Both the position numbers and the translations under genes were made by a program. The notes below the pieces were generated by a model. It was given only the letters and a program-made list of their open reading frames with translations. It was not told the DNA's origin and did not search any database. From the IMG/VR virus record IMGVR_UViG_3300026554_000027, positions 1-47,288 of that record: a DNA stretch of 47,288 nucleotides. One strand, 5' to 3'. The stretch comes from a virus. This document shows, piece after piece, positions 278 to 47,288 of this stretch (positions are counted from its first letter, which is position 1; the number at the start of each line of letters is the position of its first letter).

Positions 278-301
278 TTCGCAATATCGCTCGATTGCGA
301 A
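278..301 (-). repeat. 24-nt intercistronic element, copy A (TTCGCAATCGAGCGATATTGCGAA on the minus strand)
   Basis: Perfect 8-bp inverted arms. Lies directly upstream of the RBS of ORF 14..262. Confidence 0.85.
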
Positions 302-406
302 CTATCGCTCTAAAATTTTCAAAAGATCATCAATCATTTGATCGTTGCGGTTTGGTTCCGTTTTTACTGTTGCTTTTGCAGTAATTATTGTGCTCCATGT
401 TTCCAT
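302..406 (-). CDS. small hypothetical ORF (34 aa)
   Basis: GGAGG RBS 7 nt upstream of ATG. Start overlaps the upstream stop (TGATG). Stop abuts the 24-nt element. Too short to be sure. Confidence 0.3.
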   Translation of the reverse strand: METWSTIITAKATVKTEPNRNDQMIDDLLKILER

Positions 407-753
407 CACTTAACCTCCTGTGGCGGTTCTGGCAACGGCATCCAATGGGTGACTGGATTTTGCCTTGGCATCCATGTATGTCCGTAATGCCATCTCTTGT
501 CCGACCAAATAGCACTTGTGATTTCTTCCCTTTGCACACTATCTTCCGTGGTGTGTGCCGAAACATAAATCAAATACTTTCCGTTTTCAATTGGCAACCG
601 CTCACTCACCGGAATCCAGCGGGTTCCAGCAACAAAGTTTGAAATGATGTTTAGGTTGTCAACCGCATTGGAATAGCTTGAGTAGTCCATGTACTCACCG
701 TTGTGTTGTCCTAGGATTGTGTATAAATCGTCAATCGCTTCATCAATATTCAT
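406..753 (-). CDS. DUF551-like phage protein
   Basis: Motifs RWIPVSERLP and THWMPLPEPPQE are typical of DUF551. ATG at 753 follows GGAGG plus 7 nt; the track start at 756 is GTG. Confidence 0.7.
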   Translation of the reverse strand: MNIDEAIDDLYTILGQHNGEYMDYSSYSNAVDNLNIISNFVAGTRWIPVSERLPIENGKYLIYVSAHTTEDSVQREEITSAIWSDKRWHYGHTWMPRQNPVTHWMPLPEPPQEVK

Positions 754-980
754 CACTCAACCTCCTGCTTTAGCCAATCGTTAACAACAGATTTACCCAT
801 TACAATATAATTGTCCCAATTCCAATGCTTCAAAAATTCAGTCAACTCCTCGTCACTCATGGCTCGAATGCGGTCTGCGTTGGTTTTGTGGAATATTGGA
901 TCGTACATGCTACATACGTGGTTTTTGTCATCATCTGCATTGCGGCAAATAAGCTGATGGTCACAATTCATGCAATTCAT
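753..980 (-). CDS. hypothetical Cys-rich protein
   Basis: ATG at 980 lies 8 nt after the upstream stop. The track start at 1016 is a TTG with no RBS. Sequence includes MNCMNCDHQLICRN...HVC. Confidence 0.55.
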   Translation of the reverse strand: MNCMNCDHQLICRNADDDKNHVCSMYDPIFHKTNADRIRAMSDEELTEFLKHWNWDNYIVMGKSVVNDWLKQEVE

Positions 981-988
981 TTGCACGG

Positions 989-1261
989 TCACCGCCCCTC
1001 TTTTACAGGCCCACAAGTTATATCTTGCTTGTCTAATTCATCCAGCTCGCAAGCAAGTTTTTCCAAATGTTTAACAGCAATGGACTTGATAGCGGCAGAC
1101 ACTTCGGCATACAAGTACCCGTGCTCTTTTAAATATCTATCTCCAATTGATATGTTCCGTCCTAGATCCAACTTTTCTAAAATATCATTGCAGACATACA
1201 ATTGATCCTCTATTTTAGTAACTGATTTGATCAAGTCTTTTGCTTGATTTATAACTCCCAT
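989..1261 (-). CDS. hypothetical protein
   Basis: 90-aa ORF with ATG start, preceded by a 24-nt element and a GAAAGAAAGG RBS. Confidence 0.6.
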   Translation of the reverse strand: MGVINQAKDLIKSVTKIEDQLYVCNDILEKLDLGRNISIGDRYLKEHGYLYAEVSAAIKSIAVKHLEKLACELDELDKQDITCGPVKEGR

Positions 1262-1277
1262 TTTTAACCACCTTTCT

Positions 1278-1301
1278 TTCGCATAATTTCACTATTGCGA
1301 A
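1278..1301 (-). repeat. 24-nt intercistronic element, copy B (TTCGCAATAGTGAAATTATGCGAA)
   Basis: Overlaps the stop of 1292..1516. Upstream of the RBS of 989..1261. Confidence 0.85.
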
Positions 1302-1516
1302 CTATCAAACCAATACTCATACTCATCCAAAATCGCTTCAATCGTCCCAATGATATGAGAACTCATTGAATAGCATTGATCATAAATCAACCTTTCGGAA
1401 ACTTTCTCACGATACTTAGCTACTCTTGAATCAGATCTATAGAATTCTTCAATATCGTCATAGGCGTTTGCTTTTCCTTGTAAAACAGCTAGCTCTTTTT
1501 GAGATATTTCAGGCAT
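1292..1516 (-). CDS. hypothetical protein
   Basis: ATG at 1516 (the track start at 1519 is GTG). The stop TAG lies inside a copy of the 24-nt element. Confidence 0.6.
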   Translation of the reverse strand: MPEISQKELAVLQGKANAYDDIEEFYRSDSRVAKYREKVSERLIYDQCYSMSSHIIGTIEAILDEYEYWFDSSQ

Positions 1517-1644
1517 CACTCAACCCCCTGTTTTTTCTGACAAGCCGTTAGCTGGCACTGCCCCCATTCGTTTGCATGTTGGCAATAGCAATTTTTCGAA
1601 CTGCAATATTTGTGGCCATTTTCAACTGCGGTTGTGCTATACAT
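1516..1644 (-). CDS. small Cys-rich hypothetical ORF (42 aa)
   Basis: GGAGG RBS 7 nt upstream. ATGA overlap with the upstream stop and TGATG overlap with the next start. Confidence 0.4.
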   Translation of the reverse strand: MYSTTAVENGHKYCSSKNCYCQHANEWGQCQLTACQKKQGVE

Positions 1645-1976
1645 CACTCAACCTCCTGTGGCGGATTCGGTAACGTCATCCAGTGGGTGATATAGGTATG
1701 CTTTATTTGTAAGTCAAAATGTTCGTTGACTAATATTGGATTCCAAAGATCAACAACCCCGTTTGAAAACAATACAAGAATTTTGAAGTTGATCCCATTT
1801 GCATCGTTCTCAGTCGGCAACCGCTCACTCACAGGAATCCAGCGAAGTTTTTCTTCTGCGGCGATCCTCCTTTTAATTGACAAAGCCAAAGCGTCCTCAT
1901 GATAGTCGAGCGGAACTAATTCTGGAACTTCTTGATTATCTGGAAGTTGACTATTGCAAACCGGACACAGTTTCAT
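1644..1976 (-). CDS. DUF551-like phage protein (paralogue of 406..753) with N-terminal CxxC
   Basis: Motifs RWIPVSERLP and THWMTLPNPPQEVE. Nucleotide-level similarity to 406..753 at both motif regions. Confidence 0.7.
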   Translation of the reverse strand: MKLCPVCNSQLPDNQEVPELVPLDYHEDALALSIKRRIAAEEKLRWIPVSERLPTENDANGINFKILVLFSNGVVDLWNPILVNEHFDLQIKHTYITHWMTLPNPPQEVE

Positions 1977-1996
1977 AACTTAACCTCTTTCCTTTC

Positions 1997-2020
1997 TTCA
2001 CAATGTTTCACGATTGCGTC
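1997..2020 (-). repeat. 24-nt intercistronic element, copy C (GACGCAATCGTGAAACATTGTGAA)
   Basis: The stop TGA of 2019..2333 is fused to the element (TATTGACGCAAT). Confidence 0.85.
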
Positions 2021-2333
2021 AATAATCATCACTGTCATCACTGATGGCGGCAATGAAATCTGATCCATCCTCGTATCCTTCAATCAGCAATTCAAACATC
2101 TGATCAAATGCTTTATGCAAATAATTTGAACCATCTTCCTGATCACATTCAGCGATGATATGTTCGGCACAAAACTCTGCAAATGCAGTATGCTTACCTT
2201 TTTTGACCTTGTTCGGATATTCATAGTCGGGCATGTTTTCAAAAGCCATAACAAGGTTTTTGACAGGTATTTCGATTGTCAATTTTCCGTTTGACACTTT
2301 TGTAGTGAACCCCATATTTTCAAACTTCTTCAA
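2019..2333 (-). CDS. acidic hypothetical protein (start codon uncertain, TTG)
   Basis: 104-aa ORF with a D/E-rich C-terminus (ISDDSDDY). AGAAAGGA RBS 9 nt before the TTG; the internal ATG has no RBS. Confidence 0.55.
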   Translation of the reverse strand: MKKFENMGFTTKVSNGKLTIEIPVKNLVMAFENMPDYEYPNKVKKGKHTAFAEFCAEHIIAECDQEDGSNYLHKAFDQMFELLIEGYEDGSDFIAAISDDSDDY

Positions 2334-2353
2334 ACTTTTGTTTCCTTTCTAAG

Positions 2354-2377
2354 TTCACAATATCGCTCAATTGCGTC
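2354..2377 (-). repeat. 24-nt intercistronic element, copy D (GACGCAATTGAGCGATATTGTGAA)
   Basis: Contains the stop of ORF 2367..2519 (AATTGA). Confidence 0.85.
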
Positions 2378-2704: not shown

Positions 2705-3130
2705 TTACAATTTATTTGTCTTAGCCGCCACCAATAGATCTGCGATCATAACCCCAACCTTGGTAAAATCGGCATGATCTTTAATCAGATTATTACCATT
2801 TAGAATTAATAATTGCTTCCTTGTAACCAAGATTAAATTATCCAGATCGGTGTTTAAGAAGTCGCCATCACCAAATATCAACACATGACCTTTTGGGATT
2901 GGACCGTTGGCTTGCTCCCAAATATGATTATGCAACTGTACCCATTTGTGTGGTGCAATTTTGATGTATTGACGACGCTCTTTAATACGGATACTACCGA
3001 TTGGCTTACCATCAGTATATGATGGAATATGCTTAATACAACCCATAATATCTCGAATCATAGTTTTATCCGGCTCGGTTGAGTTTTGATAGTGGCTTGA
3101 CAGCCAATGTACTATTTTTATGTAATTCAT
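2705..3130 (-). CDS. HNH homing endonuclease (HNH_3-like)
   Basis: HKWVQLHNHIWEQANGPIPKGHVLIFGDGDFLNTDLDNLILVT matches the HNH_3 pattern. I use the ATG at 3130 because the longer track ORF overlaps the pentapeptide gene. Confidence 0.75.
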   Translation of the reverse strand: MNYIKIVHWLSSHYQNSTEPDKTMIRDIMGCIKHIPSYTDGKPIGSIRIKERRQYIKIAPHKWVQLHNHIWEQANGPIPKGHVLIFGDGDFLNTDLDNLILVTRKQLLILNGNNLIKDHADFTKVGVMIADLLVAAKTNKL

Positions 3131-3143
3131 TCTTCCACATCTT

Positions 3144-3779
3144 TTAATAGCACTCCGCTTCTGCTCTCGTGATAAAGAAATGTATTCCGCATGAACACTC
3201 GTTCCACCTGTTTTCGTCAAAATTATCAACTGATACAGTTTCGCCTTTTCTATAAATAAATGACGGGTCTTGCTGAGAAATTCCTTCATCCGCTCCCAAC
3301 ACATCTAACACAACGGCTTTATCGCATCTACACTTTCTTGTCGTTGCGCTAGATCGCCTTGCGTCTTCCGGTATTAGCAGTTTTACAATAACATTGTTTC
3401 GGCACTTCTTCCACCCCGTAAAAGCACCATCTTCAGGACAAACAAGCCAGAACCCTGATGTTCTTTCGTTTCCAATAGCACCACCCAAGTTAGCACCACT
3501 CAAGTTAGCACCACTCAAGTTAGCACCACTCAAGTCAGCATCACTCAAGTTAGCACGACGCAAGTTAGCACCACTCAAGTTAGCACCACTCAAGTCAGCA
3601 TCACGCAAGTTAGCATCACGCAATTTAGCATAACTCAAGTTAGCATAACTCAAGTTAGCACGACTCAAGTTAGCACGACTCAAGTCAGCACGACTCAAGT
3701 CAGCACAAATACCATTTTTATCACCTAACAACCAATTTTTGTGCGAATCTAAAATGTTGTTCAATTCTTCTATTTTCAT
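3144..3779 (-). CDS. pentapeptide-repeat protein with a C-terminal non-repeat domain
   Basis: 15 consecutive A(D/N)LSx pentapeptides (aa 26-100), then a 110-aa Cys-containing domain. Confidence 0.85.
3480..3704 (-). repeat. 15-bp tandem repeat array (coding; the pentapeptide repeats)
   Basis: caagttagcaccact-type units are reiterated about 15 times. They are in frame within CDS 3144..3779. Confidence 0.9.
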
Positions 3780-3957: not shown

Positions 3958-3981
3958 TTACGCAATACGCTCAAATTGTTC
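3958..3981 (-). repeat. degenerate copy J of the intercistronic element (GAACAATTTGAGCGTATTGCGTAA)
   Basis: Shares TTGAGCG-N-ATTGCG. Overlaps the stop of 3971..4219. Confidence 0.5.
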
Positions 3982-4219
3982 CCTCATTCCTCATCTGCTC
4001 CAAAAAATCTTCCGGCAGATTGTCGTCTGATTCTCGCTCGATTTCCTCTAAATGCTTTTCGTACCACTCCCTTGCCGCAATCACATCGAAGTATGTCTTG
4101 CCCTTGTACCTGAACCTAGGCAAGCCCATCGTCATGTACCTCTGCATCGTGCTTCTGACTACTCCAAATTCCTCGCACAATTCCATCTTCGTCAGATAAC
4201 GCTTGTCCACCGTGTTCAC
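3971..4219 (-). CDS. HTH DNA-binding protein (MerR/excisionase-like), GTG start coupled to upstream stop
   Basis: LTKMELCEEFGVVRSTMQRYMTMGLP helix-turn-helix. GTGA overlap with the stop of 4216..4524. Confidence 0.6.
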   Translation of the reverse strand: MNTVDKRYLTKMELCEEFGVVRSTMQRYMTMGLPRFRYKGKTYFDVIAAREWYEKHLEEIERESDDNLPEDFLEQMRNEGTI

Positions 4220-4524
4220 CTACTTCTATTATACTGCTTTGCTTCCTTGGCAGCAAGGGCTTCTTCCGTTCTTTTCCTGTATTCTTCCTTGATTCTACGT
4301 AGCTCACGATACCCACCATGCGTGATGGAAGTGTCGATGATGACCGCATCTCTAGGGATAATCCAGGTCGAGCCGATCTTGACTGCACCAACGATCCTGC
4401 CCTGTTTCAAAGCTGTTCTAATAGCTTGAGTCGTGGAATAGCCCATGTGTCGGCGGTACCCTTCAATGGTCATGTAGATGCCGCCACGAATTACAAACCT
4501 GTGTTGCTCTTTTTCTTCACTCAT
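4216..4524 (-). CDS. HTH DNA-binding protein (excisionase-family-like)
   Basis: YSTTQAIRTALKQGRIVGAVKIGSTWIIPRDAV resembles the Xis-type HTH. Confidence 0.6.
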   Translation of the reverse strand: MSEEKEQHRFVIRGGIYMTIEGYRRHMGYSTTQAIRTALKQGRIVGAVKIGSTWIIPRDAVIIDTSITHGGYRELRRIKEEYRKRTEEALAAKEAKQYNRSR

Positions 4525-5983: not shown

Positions 5984-6140
5984 TTCGATAGGTTCCTTTC
6001 TTGATTTCTTCTGCTACTTTCACAATGTAGTCAGACCAAGTCGACTCTGACTCATTCCATTGCGAGCTAATGACCTTGAAATTATACCGACTCTGTAAGA
6101 TGATAGCTTGCGCTTCGAGAAGCTCTCTACCTGTTGCCAT
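5976..6140 (-). CDS. small hypothetical ORF (54 aa)
   Basis: ATGA overlap with the upstream stop. It ends overlapping the start of 5468..5983. Confidence 0.4.
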   Translation of the reverse strand: MATGRELLEAQAIILQSRYNFKVISSQWNESESTWSDYIVKVAEEIKKGTYRNG

Positions 6141-7422: not shown

Positions 7423-7461
7423 CGTCTTTCCCTCTTTTCTGTTTTTTATTGGACTAGCGTT

Positions 7462-7836
7462 TCAGATAATCTCTTTAGTCAATGCATAGTAATATGTATC
7501 TAACAAATACTCTTTTATGTCGTTTTTGTTTTTGCCAGATATAGTTAAATCAAGTCCACTAAACGATGGCCTAACTGTGATAACGTGATCAGTCCATCCA
7601 TCATAGAAGCCATTTTCGTCCATATGATGAAATGATAACGTTAGTTTGAATTGATTCGCTTTAAGATCCCTTGTATCAATTTTTGTTCCGCAGTCAATGC
7701 CAGACCCGGACGGCAAATTCTTTTCAAGCTCGATCAATTTTTCCGTGTGCTTGTCCAGCCATTCACTATTGCTAGACTTCTTACAATTCTCAATGGCCAT
7801 TAACCTAGAGTAAATCTCACTTGCTACAGTTTTCAT
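7462..7836 (-). CDS. hypothetical protein
   Basis: 124-aa ORF with GGAGGG RBS. Probably the first solid gene of the leftward early operon. Confidence 0.65.
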   Translation of the reverse strand: MKTVASEIYSRLMAIENCKKSSNSEWLDKHTEKLIELEKNLPSGSGIDCGTKIDTRDLKANQFKLTLSFHHMDENGFYDGWTDHVITVRPSFSGLDLTISGKNKNDIKEYLLDTYYYALTKEII

Positions 7837-7872
7837 TTTTATCCCTCCAGTTGTTTTTTATTGGACTAGCGT

Positions 7873-7894
7873 TGACTGTCTTGTGACTGTCTTG
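7873..7894. repeat. tandem 11-bp direct repeat tgactgtcttg x2
   Basis: Read directly from the sequence, in the 5' leader of the leftward early operon. Confidence 0.8.
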
Positions 7895-8031
7895 TCGCTG
7901 TCCCATGATTCCATCATAAACACTACTATATAGGCTGTCAACACTAAAATCCATCTTTTTACGTAGCCATGGCAACCAAACGGAATAGCAATAATATGTT
8001 ATATTCACTACTGCATATTTATTCAATATTC

Positions 8032-9454: not shown

Positions 9455-9482
9455 TTGACAACCATAAAAGTTGTGGTATAAT
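9455..9482 (+). promoter_or_regulatory. near-consensus sigma-A promoter with extended -10 (TTGACA, 16-nt spacer, TGgTATAAT)
   Basis: gtgTTGACAaccataaaagttgTGgTATAAT, read directly from the sequence. Confidence 0.7.
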
Positions 9483-9490
9483 CGCGCGAT

Positions 9491-9522
9491 CGTGCGTGCG
9501 TGTGCGCACGCGTGCGTTTTAT
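9491..9522 (+). terminator. GC-rich hairpin plus T-run (intrinsic terminator) immediately downstream of promoter 9455..9482
   Basis: 9494-9503 pairs with 9508-9517 (10 bp including G-U pairs), followed by ttttatattt. There is no T-run in the minus orientation. Confidence 0.55.
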
Positions 9523-9638
9523 ATTTATTAATTTCTTTCTTTATTTAGAAGAGTTAATTCTTTTTCTTTGCTTACTTTCTTTTTCTTATCAGAGAAACCT
9601 TTTTTCTTTCTTTATCGGAAAAGTGAAATGGAATTGGC

Positions 9639-12015: not shown

Positions 12016-12443
12016 GTCTTGATTTCTTCCCTGCCGAGGATCATGTCGGTGATTTCTTCCGTGACGATTTCCAGCGTTTCAGACTTGGTTGCGAGAAGCA
12101 CGATCTTCTTCACTTCAAAGATGGGCGTTACAGATTCGATGACACTCATGCCACGACCTGTGCCTTTGTACGCCACGTCAGGTCTATAGACGCAACGAAT
12201 GTAGACTTTATCCGTTGCCTTGTACCTTGCATGGATGGCTACCGCTGTCGCTTTTAACGCAAACAGGCTTATCGGAACAAATGCTTTAGGCGAAAACTCG
12301 TTGCAATAGCTTGCAATCTGGAAATCCGCTCTGGGCACAACGTTTTTGTCCTTGTAGACGTGCTCCGAAAGAACGATGTCGCCTGAAATCCAGCCTTCAA
12401 ATTGGCAGATATTTTCATCTGGGTAGTTCCTGCGCTTTAGCAT
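12009..12443 (-). CDS. hypothetical protein
   Basis: 144-aa ORF. Its ATG overlaps the stop of the HNH gene. Last gene of the RHH-HNH cassette. Confidence 0.6.
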   Translation of the reverse strand: MLKRRNYPDENICQFEGWISGDIVLSEHVYKDKNVVPRADFQIASYCNEFSPKAFVPISLFALKATAVAIHARYKATDKVYIRCVYRPDVAYKGTGRGMSVIESVTPIFEVKKIVLLATKSETLEIVTEEITDMILGREEIKTK

Positions 12444-12946
12444 TGTGGCACCTCGTTTAAGCGAGCAAATTCACCATGCAGCTCCAATGCCAGTTTGTTG
12501 TATGCCATTGCTGCTTCCTCTGCTGTTTTAAAACCGCAAATTCTTTTTGTTTTTCCATATAATGTTACTCTGCACATATAGGTTGGTTTTTCTAGGTGTG
12601 GATTGTTGATGACAACTCCCTTGTAACCGGTTTTTGAATGCCTTTCAGAATTGCACATGTTTTTTGCTTGGTCGCAAATTCTTAAATTTGATCTTCTGTT
12701 GTCTAATTTATCTCTATTTATGTGATCGACGTATGTTTTGTTTCCTTTTTCCAACCCAAAAATAAATCTGTGCATAAGAACTTTTTCTGAATGTTGTTTC
12801 TTGCCTTTTTTGCCAAGAAATTTAGTTCTTGCAACATATCCTTGAGGGCTAACGGTCCAACAATATTTTGAAAGAACCTCATAATCGTCTTCATCAACAC
12901 AAGTATATGGTCCGTTTGAGCACTTAATCCATCTTGGTTCGCTCAT
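12437..12946 (-). CDS. HNH endonuclease with C-terminal AP2 DNA-binding domain
   Basis: YVDHINRDKLDNRRSNLR (HNH_3-like), plus YKGV...YMCRVTLYGKTKRICGFKTAEEAAMAYNKLALELHGEFA (AP2-like). ATG at 12946 has a GGAAAGGG RBS; the track start is TTG. Confidence 0.8.
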   Translation of the reverse strand: MSEPRWIKCSNGPYTCVDEDDYEVLSKYCWTVSPQGYVARTKFLGKKGKKQHSEKVLMHRFIFGLEKGNKTYVDHINRDKLDNRRSNLRICDQAKNMCNSERHSKTGYKGVVINNPHLEKPTYMCRVTLYGKTKRICGFKTAEEAAMAYNKLALELHGEFARLNEVPQC

Positions 12947-13073
12947 TTTTTGCCCTTTCCGCAATCATGCTTTCAATAATCTTTGCCATTGATGTGTGCG
13001 CTTGGTCTGCCCATGCCTCAAGCATCCGCTTCTGTTCCGTTGTAAGTCTAATTTCAAGCCTTTCTGGTTTCAT
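12924..13073 (-). CDS. ribbon-helix-helix DNA-binding protein
   Basis: AAAGGAGG RBS. ERLEIRLTTEQKRMLEAWADQAHTSMAKIIESMI fits the RHH pattern. Confidence 0.55.
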   Translation of the reverse strand: MKPERLEIRLTTEQKRMLEAWADQAHTSMAKIIESMIAERAKNERTKMD

Positions 13074-22095: not shown

Positions 22096-23400
22096 ATGGC
22101 GATTACGATTACTGTTACCGCAGACGACAATCACTCAATTGCGGCATCAAAGAAAATATTGTCAAGGCAAGGCGAACTAGGAGAAACCATAACTTTCAGT
22201 TTGCCGTCTACATTAAATGCGGCTTATCCTCGTGCTTGGATCATGATTCAGCAACCGGATGGTCAACTTTACTATATTGATAATGGTTCTGGTGCTGGTT
22301 TCACTTGGCCTAATCCTTACACATTTACTTACAATATTGGCGACAGAGATACAATGCTTTCGTCTGATGGCACGCTTGGAATCCAGATTGTTCTTCGTGA
22401 CGCAACACCACCTGCGCAGACGGTTGAATGGCGTTCTCGCATTTTGTATCTTACCATTGAAGGTTCGATTCTTTCCAATGTAGATAGTGGCGGTTCGCTG
22501 ATTGATTCTCTGTCTAGCGGTACTCTTGATCGTCTTGCCGATATTCAGTACGATTCTTTGGCCGATGGCGACTTGCTTTATCGCGATACAGCTACTGGCA
22601 AATGGCGTAATGTCACGCTGGTTGAGGGTTTGCACATTACGGCGACACTTAACAAAACATCTGGAACGCTCACACTAAGCGCAACTGGCGATATAAGCCC
22701 GAACGCAGAAGATGTCTTGTTGGCTGATGTTGCAGGAAATTTTGTTGCGACAGAAGTTGAAAGTGCTCTTGCCGAATTGTTTGACGAAACAGTAAAAAAC
22801 ACCGGAAACGAAACAATTGCTGGAATAAAAACATTTGCATCTAGTCCAATTGTACCAACACCAACTACAGATTATCAGACAAGCACCAAAAAATATGTTG
22901 ATGACAAAACATCATTGCTCGCCGAATATGAAGTCACTGGCTCTGCTGTCACCAGTATTGATTTTAGCGGGCTGGATATCAACACGCACAAGTCTTATGT
23001 CGTAGAAATTGAATTAAAAAACGCCACGGCGAGCAATAGCAATGTATCTTTGTTTATAAACGGAGATACAACTGCTACTAATTATTACACTCAAGTATTT
23101 GGGTACTCGCACACGACAGCCGTAGCTGGTAGAAGTAACAATGCAATTGTTTGTGGGCTCAAAAATAGCACAAGTTCTGTAGTGTTTGCAAAATTTAACA
23201 TTATGCTCAGTGATGGTGGAATCGCGAATTCGTTGTCTCATGACAGAGAGGGAGTTAGTATGGCTACTCCAGAATCCTATGTTTATGCGTTAACGAAAGC
23301 AGCAACTGTCGCAAATATCACCCAACTCACATTTACTGCTTCTGTAGCTAGTTCAATTGCTGTCGGTTCAAAAATCAGGATTTATCGAGGCGATGTATGA
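22096..23400 (+). CDS. tail fibre / receptor-binding protein
   Basis: ESALAELF...TGNETIAGIKTFASSPIVPTPTTDYQTSTKKYVDDK is the conserved phage-fibre motif. 434 aa. Confidence 0.8.
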   Translation: MAITITVTADDNHSIAASKKILSRQGELGETITFSLPSTLNAAYPRAWIMIQQPDGQLYYIDNGSGAGFTWPNPYTFTYNIGDRDTMLSSDGTLGIQIVLRDATPPAQTVEWRSRILYLTIEGSILSNVDSGGSLIDSLSSGTLDRLADIQYDSLADGDLLYRDTATGKWRNVTLVEGLHITATLNKTSGTLTLSATGDISPNAEDVLLADVAGNFVATEVESALAELFDETVKNTGNETIAGIKTFASSPIVPTPTTDYQTSTKKYVDDKTSLLAEYEVTGSAVTSIDFSGLDINTHKSYVVEIELKNATASNSNVSLFINGDTTATNYYTQVFGYSHTTAVAGRSNNAIVCGLKNSTSSVVFAKFNIMLSDGGIANSLSHDREGVSMATPESYVYALTKAATVANITQLTFTASVASSIAVGSKIRIYRGDV

Positions 23401-35248: not shown

Positions 35249-35284
35249 AGAAAGAGGTGGCGTAAAAACCACCTCTCTTTTTAT
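35249..35284. terminator. bidirectional intrinsic terminator at the convergence of the two arms
   Basis: AGAGGTGG-cgtaaaaa-CCACCTCT stem with T-runs on both strands. Confidence 0.8.
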
Positions 35285-37344: not shown

Positions 37345-37368
37345 TGCTTAATTGGTCACGATTGTGAA
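37345..37368 (-). repeat. 24-nt intercistronic element, copy F (TTCACAATCGTGACCAATTAAGCA)
   Basis: GTGACCAATT subfamily. Upstream of 37090..37323. Confidence 0.75.
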
Positions 37369-38156: not shown

Positions 38157-38180
38157 TTCGCCATTTCGCTCAACTGCGAC
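38157..38180 (-). repeat. degenerate copy I of the intercistronic element (GTCGCAGTTGAGCGAAATGGCGAA)
   Basis: Directly follows the stop of 38181..38540. Followed by the hairpin CTAACTT-tga-AAGTTAG (38140..38156). Confidence 0.6.
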
Positions 38181-39642: not shown

Positions 39643-39939
39643 TCATTCCTCCGAGTCTGCGAAAAATCTGTCGTACCAAATCTCATTATACAAGTCAGGG
39701 TAGTGTTGCATAAAGTTTTCTAGTTCTGGCATGAATGAGTTACTGCACATTCTGTTGATTTCATCCATGAACTCATGGCCTTGCCTGGGATCACCACCAT
39801 GAAAGAACTCGTTGCGTTTGTGTCTCAATTCTACCAGAAACGCACAGCGTTGTGCCAACCACTTGATATTATCTTTCGGCCAAACGGACATGGGAAGAGG
39901 GAACATTGCGACTGCTGATGTGTATTGATAGTCTTTCAC
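39643..39939 (-). CDS. hypothetical protein (GTG start)
   Basis: GGAAGGAG RBS 6 nt before GTG. GTGA coupling. Confidence 0.55.
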   Translation of the reverse strand: MKDYQYTSAVAMFPLPMSVWPKDNIKWLAQRCAFLVELRHKRNEFFHGGDPRQGHEFMDEINRMCSNSFMPELENFMQHYPDLYNEIWYDRFFADSEE

Positions 39940-40994
39940 ATAATTCTCCTTCCGTCATTGAATATGGACGTTTGCTCCTGCTTTGGCTTTTGCTGTTTAG
40001 GATTGTTCTTCTCCCACGTCCTGACGGCGGCTTTCCAGTCTTGCATCTTTGTCTTACCAACCATCCAGCCACGTGCCTCATAGTAGTCAAGCCAATACGA
40101 AGGATCAATGCCGTTATCTCGCTGGATGCAATAAGCCCGAACTTCATCTAACGTTGGTTTAGTGAACGTTGTCCTTGCTCGCCGTGGTGAAATACTCTTT
40201 TCTTCAACCACTTGTTGGTTGATAATATCTTTCTCTAACTCTGTCTCTTTCTCTAACTCTATCTCTATATACTGTTTCGAAGCGTTTCTGTAACGTTTCA
40301 TCATCATGTCATCAAAACCAACGTTGTCTAAAATGTGCTGTTCTGGCAAAATCCCTAAAACCTTGTTTTTACTTTTGTTGTGAAGTGATGTGTGGCAAGA
40401 TGAACATAATGTTACAAGGTTTTCAATTCTAATTGTGTCATCATTGTTTGCATCGTACGGGATTATGTGATGCACCATAAGTTTTGTTTCTGCTCCACAT
40501 CTCTTGCAAACAAACCCATCTCTTTCTAAAACCTTATAATAAAACCCTCCATATCTTTTGTTGTTTATATGTGCTTCAATAAAATTTTGTGTTCTTTCAG
40601 AAAGAAGTTTTTGCTTTTCTCTGAACTTCTCAACTCTTTCTGTTGAGTTTTTAGAAGAACTTCCAAGCATTTTATCAACTTCGTTCATGTAAATTGTTTC
40701 GTCATCCATTATGTCAATCAAATTTAGTTTTGAAAAAATATCAAGAGCCTGTCTTACAACCTTGACATCTGTATTTGTTATTGTTGAAAGCATTTCTTCG
40801 TTGTATGGAAGCGAGTCGTTAAACCGTAAGCTTCCGTTGTTTTCTATGCTTTCCAAAAGAAGTTTAAGATAAAACAAAACAAAATCTTTTCCACTGGGCA
40901 TTGACTCTATCAGAACAATATCTTTTCTTTTGAAAAAGTCGTTCTTTAACTTTAACCAGTAGTATCTTCTGTTATCCGCTTTGTTCTGTTCCAT
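39936..40994 (-). CDS. replisome organiser (Phage_rep_org_N-like) with an embedded HNH nuclease domain
   Basis: The N-terminus RRYYWLKLKNDFF...FVLFYLKLLL is typical of the replisome-organiser N domain. The middle segment CKRCG...HHIIP...ENLVTLCSSCHTSLHN is HNH. The C-terminal segment TLDEVRAYC...WLDYYEARGW..GKTKMQDWKAAVRTWEKN is typical of organiser/DnaD-like tails. Confidence 0.8.
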   Translation of the reverse strand: MEQNKADNRRYYWLKLKNDFFKRKDIVLIESMPSGKDFVLFYLKLLLESIENNGSLRFNDSLPYNEEMLSTITNTDVKVVRQALDIFSKLNLIDIMDDETIYMNEVDKMLGSSSKNSTERVEKFREKQKLLSERTQNFIEAHINNKRYGGFYYKVLERDGFVCKRCGAETKLMVHHIIPYDANNDDTIRIENLVTLCSSCHTSLHNKSKNKVLGILPEQHILDNVGFDDMMMKRYRNASKQYIEIELEKETELEKDIINQQVVEEKSISPRRARTTFTKPTLDEVRAYCIQRDNGIDPSYWLDYYEARGWMVGKTKMQDWKAAVRTWEKNNPKQQKPKQEQTSIFNDGRRIM

Positions 40995-41142
40995 CTTTTC
41001 TGACCCTTTCTACTTCTGATTCTTCTATTTTGTACACATTGCCAATGCGCACGGCGTCAATTTTGCCGGAACGTATCAGCTTGATTACTGTCGGCTTACT
41101 GATGCCAAGAATTTCAGAAGCCTTTTGAGCCGATATTCTCAT
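40972..41142 (-). CDS. small Xis/MerR-like HTH protein (56 aa)
   Basis: GGAGAG RBS. ASEILGISKPTVIKLIRSGKIDAVRIGNVYKIEESEVERV. Confidence 0.5.
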   Translation of the reverse strand: MRISAQKASEILGISKPTVIKLIRSGKIDAVRIGNVYKIEESEVERVRKDGTEQSG

Positions 41143-41197: not shown

Positions 41198-41725
41198 TTA
41201 CTTTCCATACATCTCTTCTTCCATGCAATCAATCTTGTAAGCAACATGATCTATGTTCTGCAACGCTTCAATGAAACCATCATCCATATTTTCCCAGGAC
41301 TTCGGATGCTCTTTCAATTTCTGGTTATACTTCCTGTGCAAATCAAGAAGATTGTCATATTCGTCTTGCTCGCTGTATCTCTTCACAGCCATCTTTGCTT
41401 CTTGAATTGACCTTGATTTTACCCACGCTTTCTCAGCATCATCGGAGCCAACCACGCCCAAGTTGAAATCTTTATCAAGAATCTTAACTGCATCTGTGTA
41501 ATCAACGTTCAAGATTTTCTTTGCAAGAGCGATTGAGTCACCTTTGGCATGGCAAACAAAGCAATAAAACCCCTTTTTGCCATCACCAAACAACTGCATG
41601 TTACTGTCTACTCCTTGATGAAATGGACACGGACACCTGTTTGCTCGATTGACTTTCAGCCCATACTTCTTAGCGACATCCAGCGCAGATACTTGTTTTG
41701 CAATCAACTCAGATATGTAACTCAT
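41198..41725 (-). CDS. primase zinc-finger (zf-CHC2) protein lacking a recognisable catalytic domain
   Basis: CPCPFHQGVDSNMQLF...FYCFVCHAKGDSI is the CHC2 finger. 175 aa, with no Toprim/RNAP motifs seen. Confidence 0.65.
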   Translation of the reverse strand: MSYISELIAKQVSALDVAKKYGLKVNRANRCPCPFHQGVDSNMQLFGDGKKGFYCFVCHAKGDSIALAKKILNVDYTDAVKILDKDFNLGVVGSDDAEKAWVKSRSIQEAKMAVKRYSEQDEYDNLLDLHRKYNQKLKEHPKSWENMDDGFIEALQNIDHVAYKIDCMEEEMYGK

Positions 41726-41880
41726 TTTGTAGTCCTGTTCCTGACTCGCTCAACTTCTTCTTCTTCTACACGTAGTGTTTTGCCGAGTTGAACAGCAATC
41801 AGCCTTCCATCTTTAATCATTCGATAAACCGTCATGCGACTAACACCGAAGATTTTAGCCACCTTTGTAATTGAAAGCAC
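41722..41880 (-). CDS. small Xis/MerR-like HTH protein (52 aa, GTG start), paralogue of 40972..41142
   Basis: GAGGTGA RBS. VAKIFGVSRMTVYRMIKDGRLIAVQLGKTLRVEEEEVERV. Confidence 0.45.
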   Translation of the reverse strand: MLSITKVAKIFGVSRMTVYRMIKDGRLIAVQLGKTLRVEEEEVERVRNRTTK

Positions 41881-41904: not shown

Positions 41905-41932
41905 ATTATACTGCTTTGTTATTATTTGTCAA
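41905..41932 (-). promoter_or_regulatory. consensus sigma-A promoter (TTGACA, 16-nt spacer, TATAAT)
   Basis: On the minus strand: cgTTGACAaataataacaaagcagTATAATagtg, about 25 nt upstream of ORF 41722..41880. Confidence 0.7.
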
Positions 41933-42897: not shown

Positions 42898-43415
42898 CCG
42901 TTCTTCTCCTTTGCTTCTAGCATTTCTACAAGTCGAGTTAAATACCATTTTGCCTTTTGGTAATCTTGCAATCCGTTTTTCTTTGGTGCCCTGCATACAT
43001 ACTGTAGGATGCTTAAGACATATCCCCATTCTACCGCACTATACCCACCGTGAACAGCCAATTCGTCGAGAAAGTCTATCAATTCATACTTGCCAATCAT
43101 GTAGTGCTTTGGTGAATTGACCATATTATCTGGCTGTGCATCAGGTTCCATGGCGTCTGAGTTCACTCCCCAAAACTTTTCCTTTTCGTCTTGTGTTACT
43201 TCATCTTCTACTTTGCACTCAATCATATGATCTTCCCAAAAATATCCTTCCCCTTCAAGTTCGGTAAAATCTTCATACATCTTGTAGTAATCATCACCGA
43301 CACAACGCACCGTCATAACCTTGCCAGACCACATCAACATCCTTGCTACTGTACCCGCATCACTTATAGACAAATCTTCCCTAATCTTTACACGATCTCC
43401 AACTTTGTATTTCAT
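42894..43415 (-). CDS. DUF3310 domain protein
   Basis: VNSPKHY...ELIDFL...ILQYVCRAPKKNGLQDYQKAKWYL matches the DUF3310 pattern. Confidence 0.7.
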   Translation of the reverse strand: MKYKVGDRVKIREDLSISDAGTVARMLMWSGKVMTVRCVGDDYYKMYEDFTELEGEGYFWEDHMIECKVEDEVTQDEKEKFWGVNSDAMEPDAQPDNMVNSPKHYMIGKYELIDFLDELAVHGGYSAVEWGYVLSILQYVCRAPKKNGLQDYQKAKWYLTRLVEMLEAKEKNG

Positions 43416-44101
43416 AGCGTCACCTCTACTCCTTTATCAGCTATCACCGGAATTATTCCTGTCAGTTTAAATAGCTCATACTTGATCCGTTCTGCATCGC
43501 TGTTCTTGTCGCTCAAGTGGCAGATGATGAGGGTCTTGAGCTTGTATCCTTCGCTGTCCATCATCTTCTGTAGCAGTTCCTTAGCCCTGCGAAGCGAGTT
43601 GTGATACTTGACAAGCCGTAGATACCTGTCGCCTAACTCGTTCTGTTTTGACTCAATGATATCGTCGATGTAACTTATCTCCAGTATCAACGTGTCAACC
43701 GTGGCAGGAACCAGCTTCGTGTATGAGAAGTCAGTCATGTAGGCAATCTTATGCTTTGTAGGTTTATGGTAGAGCAGATAAGCCCAGTTCCTTACATCAT
43801 GTTCAACGTCCCACGCCTTGATTTTCCAATCGCCTATCTCAAACTCTGTCTGTGTGGACTCCCAATCGTCAATAGGTGGCGAGATTGTGGGTATTCCTGC
43901 TTTCTTGATGTCATCAAAGCACTTGCCATGATCTGCGTGACCGTGCGTAAGAGCAACGAAATCAACCCTGTCCAACTGCCATCCGCAACTCTCTTTGAAC
44001 CGTGGGAACGCAAGCCCTGCATCGAGATAGACATACCGCTCGTTGTGTGACAGCCGGTGCATATTTCCTTTACTGCCCGTCCCAAAGCATTTGTACTTCA
44101 C
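43412..44101 (-). CDS. metallo-beta-lactamase-fold hydrolase (GTG start)
   Basis: VALTHGHADHG motif. 229 aa. Next to recT, so it may be the nuclease partner. Confidence 0.75.
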   Translation of the reverse strand: MKYKCFGTGSKGNMHRLSHNERYVYLDAGLAFPRFKESCGWQLDRVDFVALTHGHADHGKCFDDIKKAGIPTISPPIDDWESTQTEFEIGDWKIKAWDVEHDVRNWAYLLYHKPTKHKIAYMTDFSYTKLVPATVDTLILEISYIDDIIESKQNELGDRYLRLVKYHNSLRRAKELLQKMMDSEGYKLKTLIICHLSDKNSDAERIKYELFKLTGIIPVIADKGVEVTL

Positions 44102-44304: not shown

Positions 44305-45180
44305 TCACAAATCAAATGCGCTGTCGTCTAGCGTAAGCTGTTCCAGTTCGTCAACCTCTTTCACGTCTCCTGCCATATCGCTATCGGTAACAACAACAGG
44401 ATCAACAGCATCGCAAACGGGATCGTCACCACCGATATCAATAATGTCCTGATTAGCTTTAGAATCATGATCTTCCTCGATTTCTTCTGCCTGGTCGAAC
44501 AACGAATCATTGTTTGTGGCGTTGAGCAGTTTCGCAAGTCTACGAAGAACCGTTTTCTTGCACATTTCGGATGTCGTCAAGTTGTGAGCCTTTGAGTCGC
44601 CTTTTGCAATCCCGAAGTTCCAGCTTTTCTTAATGTCTGCAAGCGGCATATACTCTGCTTGGCTTGTCCCGTCAAAGAACTCAACGCACGCATAAGCACC
44701 TTTGATTTTTTCAGGGGCGATATTGTCGATGTCCTGTTCGTGAAGTGTAATCTCTTTTCTGCCATTAACAATTTTGAATTTAAAAATGTCTCCTTGATAG
44801 ACAATTTCGCTGTAAATGTTTTTCACGTTGTGGTTGTTCTGTTTCAGCTTGTAACATTCTCCGAGATAACTGGTCAACATTGTCAGCTTGTTGCCGTAGA
44901 CAACGGGATAGAAATGTGTCTTGTTTGCATAGAGTCCGTCTTGCACTACCTTGAGAAGGAACTCTTTAATTGAATCAGGCGTGCAAACAGTCAATGCAGG
45001 TTTGTCGTTCTTGTCTACTGTCTGCTGTATAGCAAGCATGGCACTTTGTAATCCGTTCGCAAGGGCGTACCCTTTTGGCACAACAATTCCAGTCGATGAA
45101 ACCTTTTCTGAAACCGCTCGCACGGTCATGTCTACATATTCTTCCATTGTTGCCGGTTGTTTAGTAATAATTTCGCTCAT
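44305..45180 (-). CDS. recT: RecT-family single-strand annealing protein
   Basis: CTPDSIKEFLLKVVQDGLYANKTHFYPVVYGNKL...YSEIVYQGD.F and KKTVLRRLAKLL match RecT hallmarks. Confidence 0.75.
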   Translation of the reverse strand: MSEIITKQPATMEEYVDMTVRAVSEKVSSTGIVVPKGYALANGLQSAMLAIQQTVDKNDKPALTVCTPDSIKEFLLKVVQDGLYANKTHFYPVVYGNKLTMLTSYLGECYKLKQNNHNVKNIYSEIVYQGDIFKFKIVNGRKEITLHEQDIDNIAPEKIKGAYACVEFFDGTSQAEYMPLADIKKSWNFGIAKGDSKAHNLTTSEMCKKTVLRRLAKLLNATNNDSLFDQAEEIEEDHDSKANQDIIDIGGDDPVCDAVDPVVVTDSDMAGDVKEVDELEQLTLDDSAFDL

Positions 45181-45196: not shown

Positions 45197-45220
45197 TTCG
45201 GTTAAGGTCACTATTGCGTC
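45197..45220 (-). repeat. 24-nt intercistronic element, copy G (GACGCAATAGTGACCTTAACCGAA)
   Basis: Stop fused as TATTGACGCAAT. Upstream of recT. Confidence 0.8.
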
Positions 45221-45406: not shown

Positions 45407-45430
45407 AACGCAATTTCGCTCAATTGCGTC
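45407..45430 (-). repeat. 24-nt intercistronic element, copy H (GACGCAATTGAGCGAAATTGCGTT)
   Basis: Perfect CGCAAT/ATTGCG arms. Contains the stop of 45420..45689. Confidence 0.85.
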
Positions 45431-45689
45431 CTTCTTCCAATCGTGCGTTAATCATGTCAGACAGCATCCAGATGACCTCTCCCTTTTCATTGCCGTCCTG
45501 AATCAGTCCTGTGAGAAACATCGCTATGGAGTTCAGTATAACCTTGTCACTGCCGGATGATACCATCTCAACCTGCCTGTTATCGTCCACCCTTGCCACG
45601 ATGAATCCCTGTTCTGCGCCTGTCTTGTGCGTCTTGAGCACATCATAGGCAAAGTCAATCACGTCCTTGTCTGTCACTTCTTCAATCAT
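45420..45689 (-). CDS. hypothetical protein (its C-terminal 29 aa are duplicated in ORF 2367..2519)
   Basis: 89-aa ORF with ATGA coupling. Confidence 0.6.
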   Translation of the reverse strand: MIEEVTDKDVIDFAYDVLKTHKTGAEQGFIVARVDDNRQVEMVSSGSDKVILNSIAMFLTGLIQDGNEKGEVIWMLSDMINARLEEGRN

Positions 45690-47242
45690 TCAACCACCAC
45701 TTTCAATTCTTTTTCCTCTTCCTTAACGTAGAGCGTAATAACTTGGCAGTCCATCTTATTGAGCCAGCTTGCAGATTCAGCATTGTCGATGAACACCACA
45801 GCTCTCGTGTTTGTGTGTCGCTGGATAGCGTTGATAACTTCCTGCCCTGCTCTGATCGCTTCTGACCGTGAGCAGTCACTATAAGGAACGTTTCCATTTA
45901 CCATCGCCGTGCAGTCATCCGATATGTTGCCGTTCATAGCTTCGTCAAACAACCTGAACTTCAATGTCGAGAATAGATCATTGACCCTACTCTGTACCGC
46001 TTCTGCCTTTGCCCTGATGAACCGTTCTACAGCGTTCTTGATTCCTTCCTGCTGAACGATGAGTGTAGCCAGTTCCCTGTTCCTCTGCTCAAGTTCGTGA
46101 ATCCGATTGCTTGTATCGTTTGCAAGATTTGCAAGTGCAAGTTTCGTTTTGAGTTCATCCAAGAACCGCTTCTGCTCTGCGATGACTTCCGGCTTTTTGC
46201 AACCGTCAAGATTTTCTCTTGCAATTTGACGCTGTTTGTCTAGTCCTTGATACGTTGCCTTGAGTTGAGCTGCGTTCTTTAGCAGGTCTTGCTTGCGCTG
46301 TGCGATAAAGTTTGCCTTGTCCTCAATTACTTGATGGCAGGTCGGGCACGTGCTTACAACACCTTCGCCGGACATAATCTCTAGCTCTGCGTGCTCTTTC
46401 TTGAGTTCTTCCATGTGAGCCTTGATGTCGTTGCAAGCCTTGTCGAGCATCGTGTAGTTGGCTGAAACCGTTTCGTACATTCCTGGCTGTGCAAGCTCAA
46501 TCTCTTTTTCCAATGCTTCAATCTGTAATCCGAGCTTTTCATTGTTTTCAACCGGTTCGTTTCTTCGTTTCAGTTCATCGATTCGAGCTGGTATCTGGTC
46601 TTGCTCTTTCTTGTATTCCTTGATCTTGCTCGTAACGATCTTGAGCAGGTCTTCTGTTGTGTGTCCCTTGGCTTGCATCGTAGCAACCACTCGCAGAAGG
46701 TCTGCATCGCCTTGGCACATCTCCACCGGATCAATGCCGTCAATCATGTTCAAAAGATAGGCACGCTGGTCTTTCTTGTTCATCGTCAGGAAAGCATCTA
46801 CGTTGGTGATAACTCGGAATGTCTGCTCTGATACTATCGAGTCGATCTTTGCCTTGTATTCGTTCTGTTTTACAGGTACTTCGTTGATGATGAACTCTGT
46901 GGTGTAGCCATCGAACGTTTTCTCAAGCGCACCTCTGCGGTTCAGCCACTTGGATTTCAATGTGCGTTTTAGGACAAGGCTTTCACCGTCTACCGACAAA
47001 TCAATCGTGACGCTAGGTTCAACGCCTCTGTTTGGCTGTCCATCAATCAATGGAACGATCTCAAAGTCTGCCTTGCCCTTGCTGTCTTTTCCGAATAAGT
47101 TCCAAAGAAAAGCATCGTAAACTGTTGTCTTACCTACTGCATTGTCGGCATAAATCTGTGCGTTTTTGCCATTAAACTCAATCGTCTGTTCTTTGATGCC
47201 TTTGAAGTCTTTGATAGCGATGCCATTTAAACTGATGTTCAT
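45686..47242 (-). CDS. SMC/Rad50/SbcC-like ATPase with coiled coil and CxxC hook
   Basis: N-terminal Walker A ADNAVGKTT, a long E/K/L/Q coiled coil, a central STCPTCHQ, and C-terminal VVFIDNAES (Walker B-like). Confidence 0.8.
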   Translation of the reverse strand: MNISLNGIAIKDFKGIKEQTIEFNGKNAQIYADNAVGKTTVYDAFLWNLFGKDSKGKADFEIVPLIDGQPNRGVEPSVTIDLSVDGESLVLKRTLKSKWLNRRGALEKTFDGYTTEFIINEVPVKQNEYKAKIDSIVSEQTFRVITNVDAFLTMNKKDQRAYLLNMIDGIDPVEMCQGDADLLRVVATMQAKGHTTEDLLKIVTSKIKEYKKEQDQIPARIDELKRRNEPVENNEKLGLQIEALEKEIELAQPGMYETVSANYTMLDKACNDIKAHMEELKKEHAELEIMSGEGVVSTCPTCHQVIEDKANFIAQRKQDLLKNAAQLKATYQGLDKQRQIARENLDGCKKPEVIAEQKRFLDELKTKLALANLANDTSNRIHELEQRNRELATLIVQQEGIKNAVERFIRAKAEAVQSRVNDLFSTLKFRLFDEAMNGNISDDCTAMVNGNVPYSDCSRSEAIRAGQEVINAIQRHTNTRAVVFIDNAESASWLNKMDCQVITLYVKEEEKELKVVVE

Positions 47243-47255
47243 TTGCTTTCCCTCT

Positions 47256-47279
47256 TTCCGAATTGGTCACGATTGCGTC
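47256..47279 (-). repeat. 24-nt intercistronic element, copy E (GACGCAATCGTGACCAATTCGGAA)
   Basis: Spans the circular junction region. Upstream of the SMC-like ATPase gene. Confidence 0.8.
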
Positions 47280-47288
47280 ATAACTGAG

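Follow-up and report, generated by a model that had tools for sequence, protein, structure and literature searches.

A 24-nt motif at early-gene junctions coincides with mosaic boundaries in a RecT-encoding phage lineage

The phage genome and its two arms

The stretch of DNA analyzed here (the window) is a 47,288-nt phage assembly with a GC content of 43.7% (IMG/VR virus record IMGVR_UViG_3300026554_000027, positions 1 to 47,288), and our subject is a 24-nt element that recurs between the genes of its early arm, always in the coding orientation. The assembly is circular, its positions 1–24 and 47265–47288 being identical (a 24-nt terminal direct repeat), so the partial copy of the motif at 1–15 is an assembly duplicate of the copy called E below. 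The minus-strand arm, which runs from ~10,220 down to 1 and then from 47,288 down to 35,281, carries early and replication functions; its products include an AAA_23 (SbcC-like) ATPase, a RecT protein, an MBL-fold protein, DUF3310, a primase zinc ribbon, a replisome organizer with an HNH domain, a DnaB-type helicase, DUF1064, DUF5131 and many small open reading frames (ORFs). The plus-strand arm (~10.2–35.2 kb, referred to as the 25-kb structural arm) has the long ORFs expected for packaging and structural genes, with an endolysin at its end. Four small helix-turn-helix (HTH) proteins are encoded by this phage, and two HTH_17 proteins are encoded at 41722–41880 and 40972–41142. Neither an integrase nor a protein with an (immunity) repressor annotation came up in Pfam and PHROG scans.

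The genome is siphovirus-like, ~47 kb long and equipped with a RecT system. A megablast search with 6 kb of the window found no deposited phage similar at the DNA level, and the best protein identity to known phages is ≤36%. Its Shine-Dalgarno (SD) usage, promoters and endolysin domains look Firmicutes-like. Contigs L008 and L009, from two other Joint Genome Institute (JGI) samples, are the same phage (99.6–100% identical).

A repeated 24-nt element between early genes

The window carries nine clear copies and one degenerate copy of a 24-mer that is approximately KWCGCAAT-N-GWG-N4-ATTGYGAA; their positions are listed in Table 1 together with those of other features of the arm. All copies are on the minus (coding) strand, and by an independent gene call all are intergenic. 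We counted 9 matches to the core CGCAATNGWG where 0.99 are expected, a number reached in none of 100 shuffled sequences, although one of the nine matches is the assembly duplicate (at 4–13) and one is a chance match at 22134. A position weight matrix (PWM) scan of the window gave nine sites at 21–31 bits, and the next independent site scored 13 bits (palindromic self-hits aside). When a model was instead built from 20 copies in other genomes (below), its top nine window matches were exactly the nine clear copies, all on the minus strand and with E values of 1e-5 to 0.06, and all remaining matches had E>1. That model did not detect the degenerate copy J, whose full-length forms are present in relatives L018 and L101, and neither the PWM nor the other-genome model found a copy in the 25-kb structural arm. 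Over the 29 distinct copies known from six genomes, information content is high across element positions 2–23 and low in the flanks, and positions C2, A5, T7, G9, G11, G21 and A23 are near-invariant. The left half-site is better conserved than the right, which is lost in about one-third of the copies.

The anatomy of the junctions is uniform: upstream stop codon, 24-mer, purine-rich SD, 6–10 nt, and ATG. Each copy sits in a gap of 27–55 nt between genes. Relative to the element, the stop codon of the preceding gene occupies positions −13 to +10 and comes in three different registers, and the SD begins 0–20 nt downstream of the element (0–3 nt in most copies), so that the 24-mer ends upstream of the SD and 15–45 nt ahead of the ATG. 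From window position 3971 through the circular junction to 45180 there is a copy in every such short gap, and two further copies flank the DUF5131 gene. No copy has a sigma-A promoter match on the coding strand or an intrinsic terminator, and there is no U tract. Since gaps that lack the element hold the sigma-A-like promoters of Table 1 (one of them matching the consensus at 12/12 positions) and a terminator-like hairpin closes the arm, we conclude that the elements lie inside long operons and are themselves neither promoters nor terminators. A cassette with stops in all three frames was considered and rejected: none of the 29 copies has stops in three frames, 19 have them in two and 10 in one, which is near the shuffled expectation.

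Some copies can form an 8-bp hairpin, in part through G-U pairs, and an RNA hairpin was also considered as the conserved feature. Folding of the ten junctions is no better than that of shuffled sequences (z −1.9 to +0.55), the hairpin is frequently outside the minimum-energy fold, and several copies have no hairpin at all. Across 21 distinct copies, 68.5% of palindrome cells are paired, the same as the 68.5% of the shuffled control (slid registers gave 25–47%), and there is thus no covariation between the arms; the inverted repeat is a property of the consensus and shows no copy-by-copy compensation. There was also no Rfam match at gathering thresholds or at E≤1, and the z-scores and pair counts rule the hairpin out as the conserved feature. 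An earlier sequence-only reading of this DNA, which had described ten copies of a 24-mer in a single orientation relative to transcription, placed them between stop codon and SD, denied them a sigma-A promoter and held that sequence was conserved and not structure, proved accurate on all of these points: its sequences were all found on the minus strand (though its lists of sequences and coordinates were ordered differently), and every coding-strand promoter match lies outside the copies.

Table 1. Positions of the 24-nt element copies and of other features of the early arm.
Feature	Position	Strand	Context
Copy A, TTCGCAATCGAGCGATATTGCGAA	278..301	minus	perfect 8+8 palindrome; between TAG stop of 34-aa gene and AGAAAGG SD of gene 14-262
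Copy B	1278..1301	minus	upstream of gene 989-1261
Copy C	1997..2020	minus	element positions -1 to +1 overlapped by TGA stop of upstream gene
Copy D	2354..2377	minus	TGA at element positions 8-10 is stop of 50-aa gene; within 118-nt repeat shared with copy H
Copy J (degenerate), GAACAATTTGAGCG-TATTGCGTAA, 1-nt deletion	3958..3981	minus	3' of conserved 79-aa HTH_17 gene; left border of slot 1
Copy E	47256..47279	minus	upstream of AAA_23 gene; right border of slot 1
Copy H	45407..45430	minus	3' of 89-aa gene; left border of slot 2
Copy G	45197..45220	minus	upstream of RecT; right border of slot 2
Copy I	38157..38180	minus	3' of DUF1064 gene; left border of slot 3
Copy F	37345..37368	minus	3' of DUF5131 gene; right border of slot 3
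Sigma-A-like promoter TTGACA-17-TATGAT	7913..7941	minus	head of operon with copies J, D, C, B, A, E, H and G
Perfect sigma-A-like promoter TTGACA-16-TATAAT	41905..41932	minus	intergenic gap without element
Strong sigma-A-type promoter	41191-41164	minus	gap without element
Terminator-like hairpin	35251..35278	minus	end of early arm
AAA_23 (SbcC-like) ATPase	45686..47242	minus	core gene; query for finding relatives
RecT-family single-strand annealing protein	44305..45180	minus	candidate enzyme of short-homology exchange
Two small HTH genes	3971..4524	minus	102 aa at 4216-4524; 79 aa (HTH_17-like) at 3971-4210

Conservation of the element in relatives

Relatives were reached through a protein search with the AAA_23 ATPase and its 90% cluster (L013, L017, L018, L019 and L020) and through a pattern scan of metagenomes, which yielded L101 as the sole additional relative. 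These six come from separate samples, and either their AAA_23 proteins are 94–97% identical to that of the window (L013, L017, L018, L019 and L020) or their DNA is ~90% identical to it. All six have the motif at gene junctions and in coding orientation, which makes seven genomes with the window; the 29 distinct copies mentioned above come from six genomes including the window, and L101 contributes four further sites.

More distant genomes differ. L010 and L015 (57% and 49% AAA_23 identity) keep the core gene order but have neither the element nor any other repeated motif, the latter having been searched for in L010. L014 (68%) gave no model match within its short contig, and L016 (52%) has one marginal copy at the edge of its contig (E 0.08). 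Conservation in relatives, the lack of which the sequence-only reading had named as one refuting result, holds for the close relatives, and it is absent at 49–57% AAA_23 identity. Beyond this group, a pattern scan of viral contigs gave seven single matches, of which the two that were checked (L001 and L003) lie inside ORFs; one junction compared by blastn with GenBank phages had matches at the level of chance only, and no loci turned up when viral and genome collections were searched on the basis of RecT.

One further occurrence of related phage DNA is of a different kind. In L011 (9859–12051) and L012, DNA ~90% identical to the window begins 48 nt inside the AAA_23 gene, and in L011 it is fused to ~10 kb of bacterial chromosome (trmD, rimM, ffh and rplS, with a TrmD 72% identical to that of Smithella). 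The GC content across the join is 39% versus 44.6%, and the identical join is present in contigs of two consecutively numbered JGI samples; it reflects either chimerism of the assembly or a remnant of integration. A 1-nt deletion in the H-type element of L011 has taken away the stop codon.

Homology end points between relatives are enriched at the elements

Alignment of L013, L017 and L018 to the window arm by blastn gave 43 internal homology end points. Ten of these breakpoints are inside an element and 13 are within 20 nt of one, whereas random placement gives 1.35 (the maximum in 10,000 trials was 7), and the same pattern is seen in L019, L020 and L101. The copies frame three variable slots. 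In the window the slot from J to E contains 14 genes in blocks separated by copies D, C, B and A; it contains one gene in L017 and other gene sets in L018, L020, L101 and L013. The slot from H to G has one 57-aa gene in the window, differing genes in L013, L017, L018 and L020, and none in L019, and the slot from I to F has DUF5131 in the window and five other genes in L017, where homology stops exactly in I and F. Most of the window's slot genes have no homologue in the relatives, and the core genes that border the slots are mostly 93–100% identical where present.

Individual genes have changing neighbors across an element: in these genomes we counted six different upstream partners for the AAA_23 gene, five downstream partners for the 89-aa gene together with its 50-aa paralogue, and three for the 79-aa HTH gene. 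The junctions themselves are in-register chimeras in which the upstream gene brings the left half of the element and the downstream gene brings the right half and the SD; for example, the L013 junction L013_385 consists of the left part of L020_1644 and the right part of window copy E. The 24-nt register is kept in nearly all of the recombinant junctions. Judged by these genome comparisons, the motif is a mark of the places at which accessory genes appear to have been swapped, inserted or deleted among the relatives.

A probable short-homology crossover junction and its alternatives

The reading that we favor, and hold to be probable though by no means assured, is that a standard stop-motif-SD junction, with the 24-mer as its core, provides the short homology at which crossovers shuffle the cassettes. 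In the long early operons of this lineage the junction would separate independently translated gene cassettes and, because it is repeated between genes that are unrelated, it gives related genomes a brief stretch of homology for in-register crossover; this homology would itself be the cause of the exchanges. The enzyme would probably be the RecT-type annealing protein of the phage, and co-infection would be a possible setting. In each crossover the upstream gene would keep its stop codon and the downstream gene its ribosome-binding site (RBS), and the recombinants would therefore be viable; the junction would also serve as a portable translation-initiation region, and the outcome would be the three hypervariable slots (J–E, H–G and I–F) with different accessory genes in each phage. 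The kept 24-nt register argues for homology-guided exchange over random joining. RecT, an SbcC-like ATPase and an exonuclease are all encoded by the phage. Rad52-like recombinases are able to recombine short, diverged sequences, and the minimal pairing segment quoted for Red-beta is 23–27 bp (PMC3945230).

There are also several arguments against recombination as the sole role. Of the 43 breakpoints, 30 are away from elements, and some insertions and deletions that went through 5–6-nt microhomologies removed elements (the H–G fusion of L019 and window position 6001 compared with L018). Exact identity between non-allelic copies is 10–15 nt (the D–H pair excepted), which is below the 23–27 bp of Red-beta, and the relatives at 49–57% AAA_23 identity are mosaic too, without the element. 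Selection for intact genes alone could confine surviving breakpoints to non-overlapping gaps, and the near-invariant asymmetric positions T7, G9 and G11 are unaccounted for by recombination.

These points make sequence-specific binding a serious rival. On this account, which we rate as possible but doubtful, the element is an orientation-specific DNA site for a phage protein, in the manner of the extended start-associated sequences (ESASs) of Cluster K or the stoperators of Cluster A mycobacteriophages, that tunes or stops transcription of the accessory early genes, and its overlap with mosaic boundaries is a side effect. The inverted half-sites CGCAAT/ATTGCG around an asymmetric center with near-invariant G9 and G11 are what a binding site might look like, and Pope et al. 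argued likewise for DNA binding by ESASs from a lack of covariation between the arms (PMC3203893). Candidate motif-binding proteins are at hand among the four small HTH proteins, namely the 102-aa and 79-aa proteins, whose genes are directly upstream of the first element and 98–99% conserved across the close relatives. Yet homologues of both are present in L010 and L015, where there is no element or other repeated motif; the right half-site is gone in a third of copies, as noted, and the sites are limited to ~10 junctions of one arm. Since the scans found no integrase and no annotated repressor, silencing of a prophage by a stoperator-type mechanism is unlikely. An element acting in the mRNA, whether as a translational operator for an RNA-binding repressor of the T4 RegA kind, as a place of endonuclease processing, or as a 5' stabilizer or insulator ahead of the SD, would agree well with the strictly sense orientation, the fixed place between stop codon and SD, and the hairpin available to some copies, but we regard it as unlikely given folding and pairing at the shuffled level, the lack of an Rfam match, and the copies that are hairpin-free.

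It seems unlikelier still that an ancestral gene was duplicated in tandem with its spacer and that the copies are passive leftovers of this without a function of their own. The array does contain paralogues (a pair of DUF551 genes, as well as the 50-aa and 89-aa genes with a 118-nt repeat that includes the element), but apart from the D–H pair the flanks are unrelated while the 24-mer is ~75% identical per column, copies are kept at differing junctions in seven genomes, and the register survives at recombinant junctions. A middle-gene promoter, read by an RNA polymerase or sigma factor specific to the phage, would also be a conserved motif of ~24 nt in one orientation upstream of genes, with a better conserved left part; this we consider very improbable, as the SD begins 0–3 nt past most copies, the upstream stop codon is often within the element, strong sigma-A promoters are found in element-free gaps instead, and Pfam and PHROG scans found no RNA polymerase-like or sigma-like protein among the scanned early proteins, several of which had no family match. 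A stronger form of the recombinational reading, in which the 24-mer is a dedicated cassette-exchange site whose asymmetric core is read by a phage factor that stimulates in-register exchange, we think improbable. The candidate factors would be one of the conserved excisionase-like HTH_17 proteins or one of three HNH nucleases (below), and, if true, this would amount to integron-like gene capture in a lytic phage without an integrase.

Comparison with known boundary motifs and sites

Mosaic phage genomes have been explained either by homologous exchange at short conserved boundaries or by random illegitimate joining followed by selection. To our knowledge there are few clear cases of repeated boundary motifs, and chief among them are the PeSLs (promoter-early stem-loops) of T4-like phages. 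If the crossover reading is right, the present lineage would be a second and simpler case, with a 24-nt motif that has no promoter or terminator, 9–10 copies per genome and a RecT protein. Should the motif guide exchange, a minimal stop-motif-SD junction would suffice for plug-and-play accessory genes, and there would be a defined sequence to mutate in order to separate recombination from selection, although this value is limited at present because the phage is known from metagenomes only.

PeSL cassettes of T4-type phages (Arbiol et al. 2010, PMC2839356; Comeau et al. 2014, PMC4122927) are intergenic motifs, extending from stop codon to SD, at which the insertions, deletions and replacements of hyperplastic regions begin and end; recombination between neighboring PeSLs is reported to give mini-circles. 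The element described here resembles them in being a short repeated intergenic motif that spans from the upstream stop codon to the SD or start codon of the next gene, in being concentrated in hyperplastic regions beside ORFans (here three slots with mostly genome-unique genes), and in that insertions, deletions and replacements that distinguish close relatives have their limits in it (here the 13 of 43 breakpoints reported above). It differs in that the strong sigma-70 promoter of the PeSL is absent from the 24-mer copies and the terminator stem-loop is absent as well (folds at the shuffled level, no U tract and no terminator call); moreover, it is 24 nt long and lies inside operons, and its host genome is a siphovirus-like one of ~47 kb with RecT and not a T4-like myovirus. 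Because the defining promoter and terminator are missing, we do not classify the element as a PeSL but say that it works like one, and it is best described as a minimal new variant of the boundary or shuffling motifs of T4-like phages.

The sequence-only reading had offered stoperators, start-associated sequences (SASs) and PeSLs as analogues and had put the first two in its headline. The PeSL analogy gained support from the breakpoints inside the element, but membership in the other two classes was not borne out, since no integrase or annotated repressor was found, the sites occupy part of one arm, and the motif lies upstream of the SD and not over it. According to Pope et al. (2011, PMC3203893), the SASs and ESASs of Cluster K are likewise confined to the non-structural half of the genome and to one orientation, and ESASs are directly upstream of the translation starts of genes from different families; the further likeness to ESASs is one of form only (an imperfect inverted repeat upstream of the RBS with a better conserved left repeat and no RNA covariation). 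That paper gives a 13-bp SAS consensus, GGGATAGGAGCCC, to which the 24-mer has no similarity, places the SAS over the RBS and 3–7 bp from the start codon, whereas the 24-mer is upstream of an ordinary SD, and describes ESAS arms of 17 bp with a 4–13-bp spacer in place of the 8 nt + 8 nt found here; the parts of it consulted contain no report of SASs or ESASs as crossover points. Stoperators of Cluster A phages such as L5 are also asymmetric repeated sites that are oriented with transcription and lie mostly in short intergenic spaces, but they are 13 bp long, have as their ligand a temperate phage's immunity repressor (the scans here gave small HTH proteins but no integrase and no annotated repressor), and occur genome-wide (PMC9283540, PMC6550527), and not, as here, in the minus-strand early arm only with none in the 25-kb structural arm.

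Integron attC-type cassette sites go with a site-specific (tyrosine) recombinase encoded beside the cassette array; no integrase or recombinase domain was found here, and the phage has RecT and nucleases only. The modular theory of Susskind and Botstein reportedly proposed boundary or "linker" sequences to explain the mosaicism of lambdoid phages. That proposal too concerns short conserved sequences at gene borders that guide homologous exchange of modules; the evidence for it in lambdoid phages is sparse and is not known to involve a single repeated motif, whereas here one motif is present 9–10 times per genome and breakpoints can be demonstrated in it.

Other repeats and features of the window

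The 118-nt repeat that contains part of two element copies (2358–2475 and 45411–45528) comprises the 3' ends of the 50-aa and 89-aa paralogues and the left part of D and H; its two copies are 89% identical ungapped, or 96% over 96 nt by blastn. A different and perfect 22-nt direct repeat (7440–7461 and 7852–7873; minus strand AACGCTAGTCCAATAAAAAACA) flanks a 124-aa gene (7462–7836) just downstream of the promoter at 7941–7913. L017 and L018 have a single copy of this repeat and no 124-aa gene, so that gene is a cassette insertion or deletion bounded by a repeat other than the 24-mer, which counts in favor of the crossover reading.

A second conserved type of junction, CAGGAGGTTGAGTGATG, occurs four times on the minus strand (400–420, 747–767, 1510–1530 and 1638–1658). 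At these junctions the upstream ORF contains the SD near its end, and its stop codon overlaps the next start codon (TGATG); the four upstream genes, only two of which are DUF551 paralogues, have a common C-terminal Q-E/G-V-E/K ending. A tandem repeat with a 15-nt period (3432–3751) lies within a pentapeptide-repeat gene (3144–3779), and L008, which is otherwise near-identical to the window, is 90 nt shorter there and has a 181-aa product in place of one of 211 aa.

There are three HNH endonuclease genes or domains in the window (2705–3304, 12437–12964 and 39936–40994), one of them embedded in the replisome-organizer gene. An HNH_3 gene is at different places in L018 and L010, which suggests mobile homing endonucleases that could stimulate local recombination. 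On the plus strand, at 9455–9525 in a gene-poor part of the opposite-strand arm, a sigma-A promoter of perfect sequence (TTGACA-16-TATAAT, with TG upstream) directly precedes a GC-rich terminator-like hairpin (9491–9517) and a T run; this feature could give a very short transcript, or could be a regulatory or origin feature. Finally, the gene for the MBL-fold protein (43412–44101) adjoins that for RecT, and its L015 homologue has a weak precomputed match to the Anti-Pycsar Apyc1 family, a hint that the protein may be an anti-defense nuclease.

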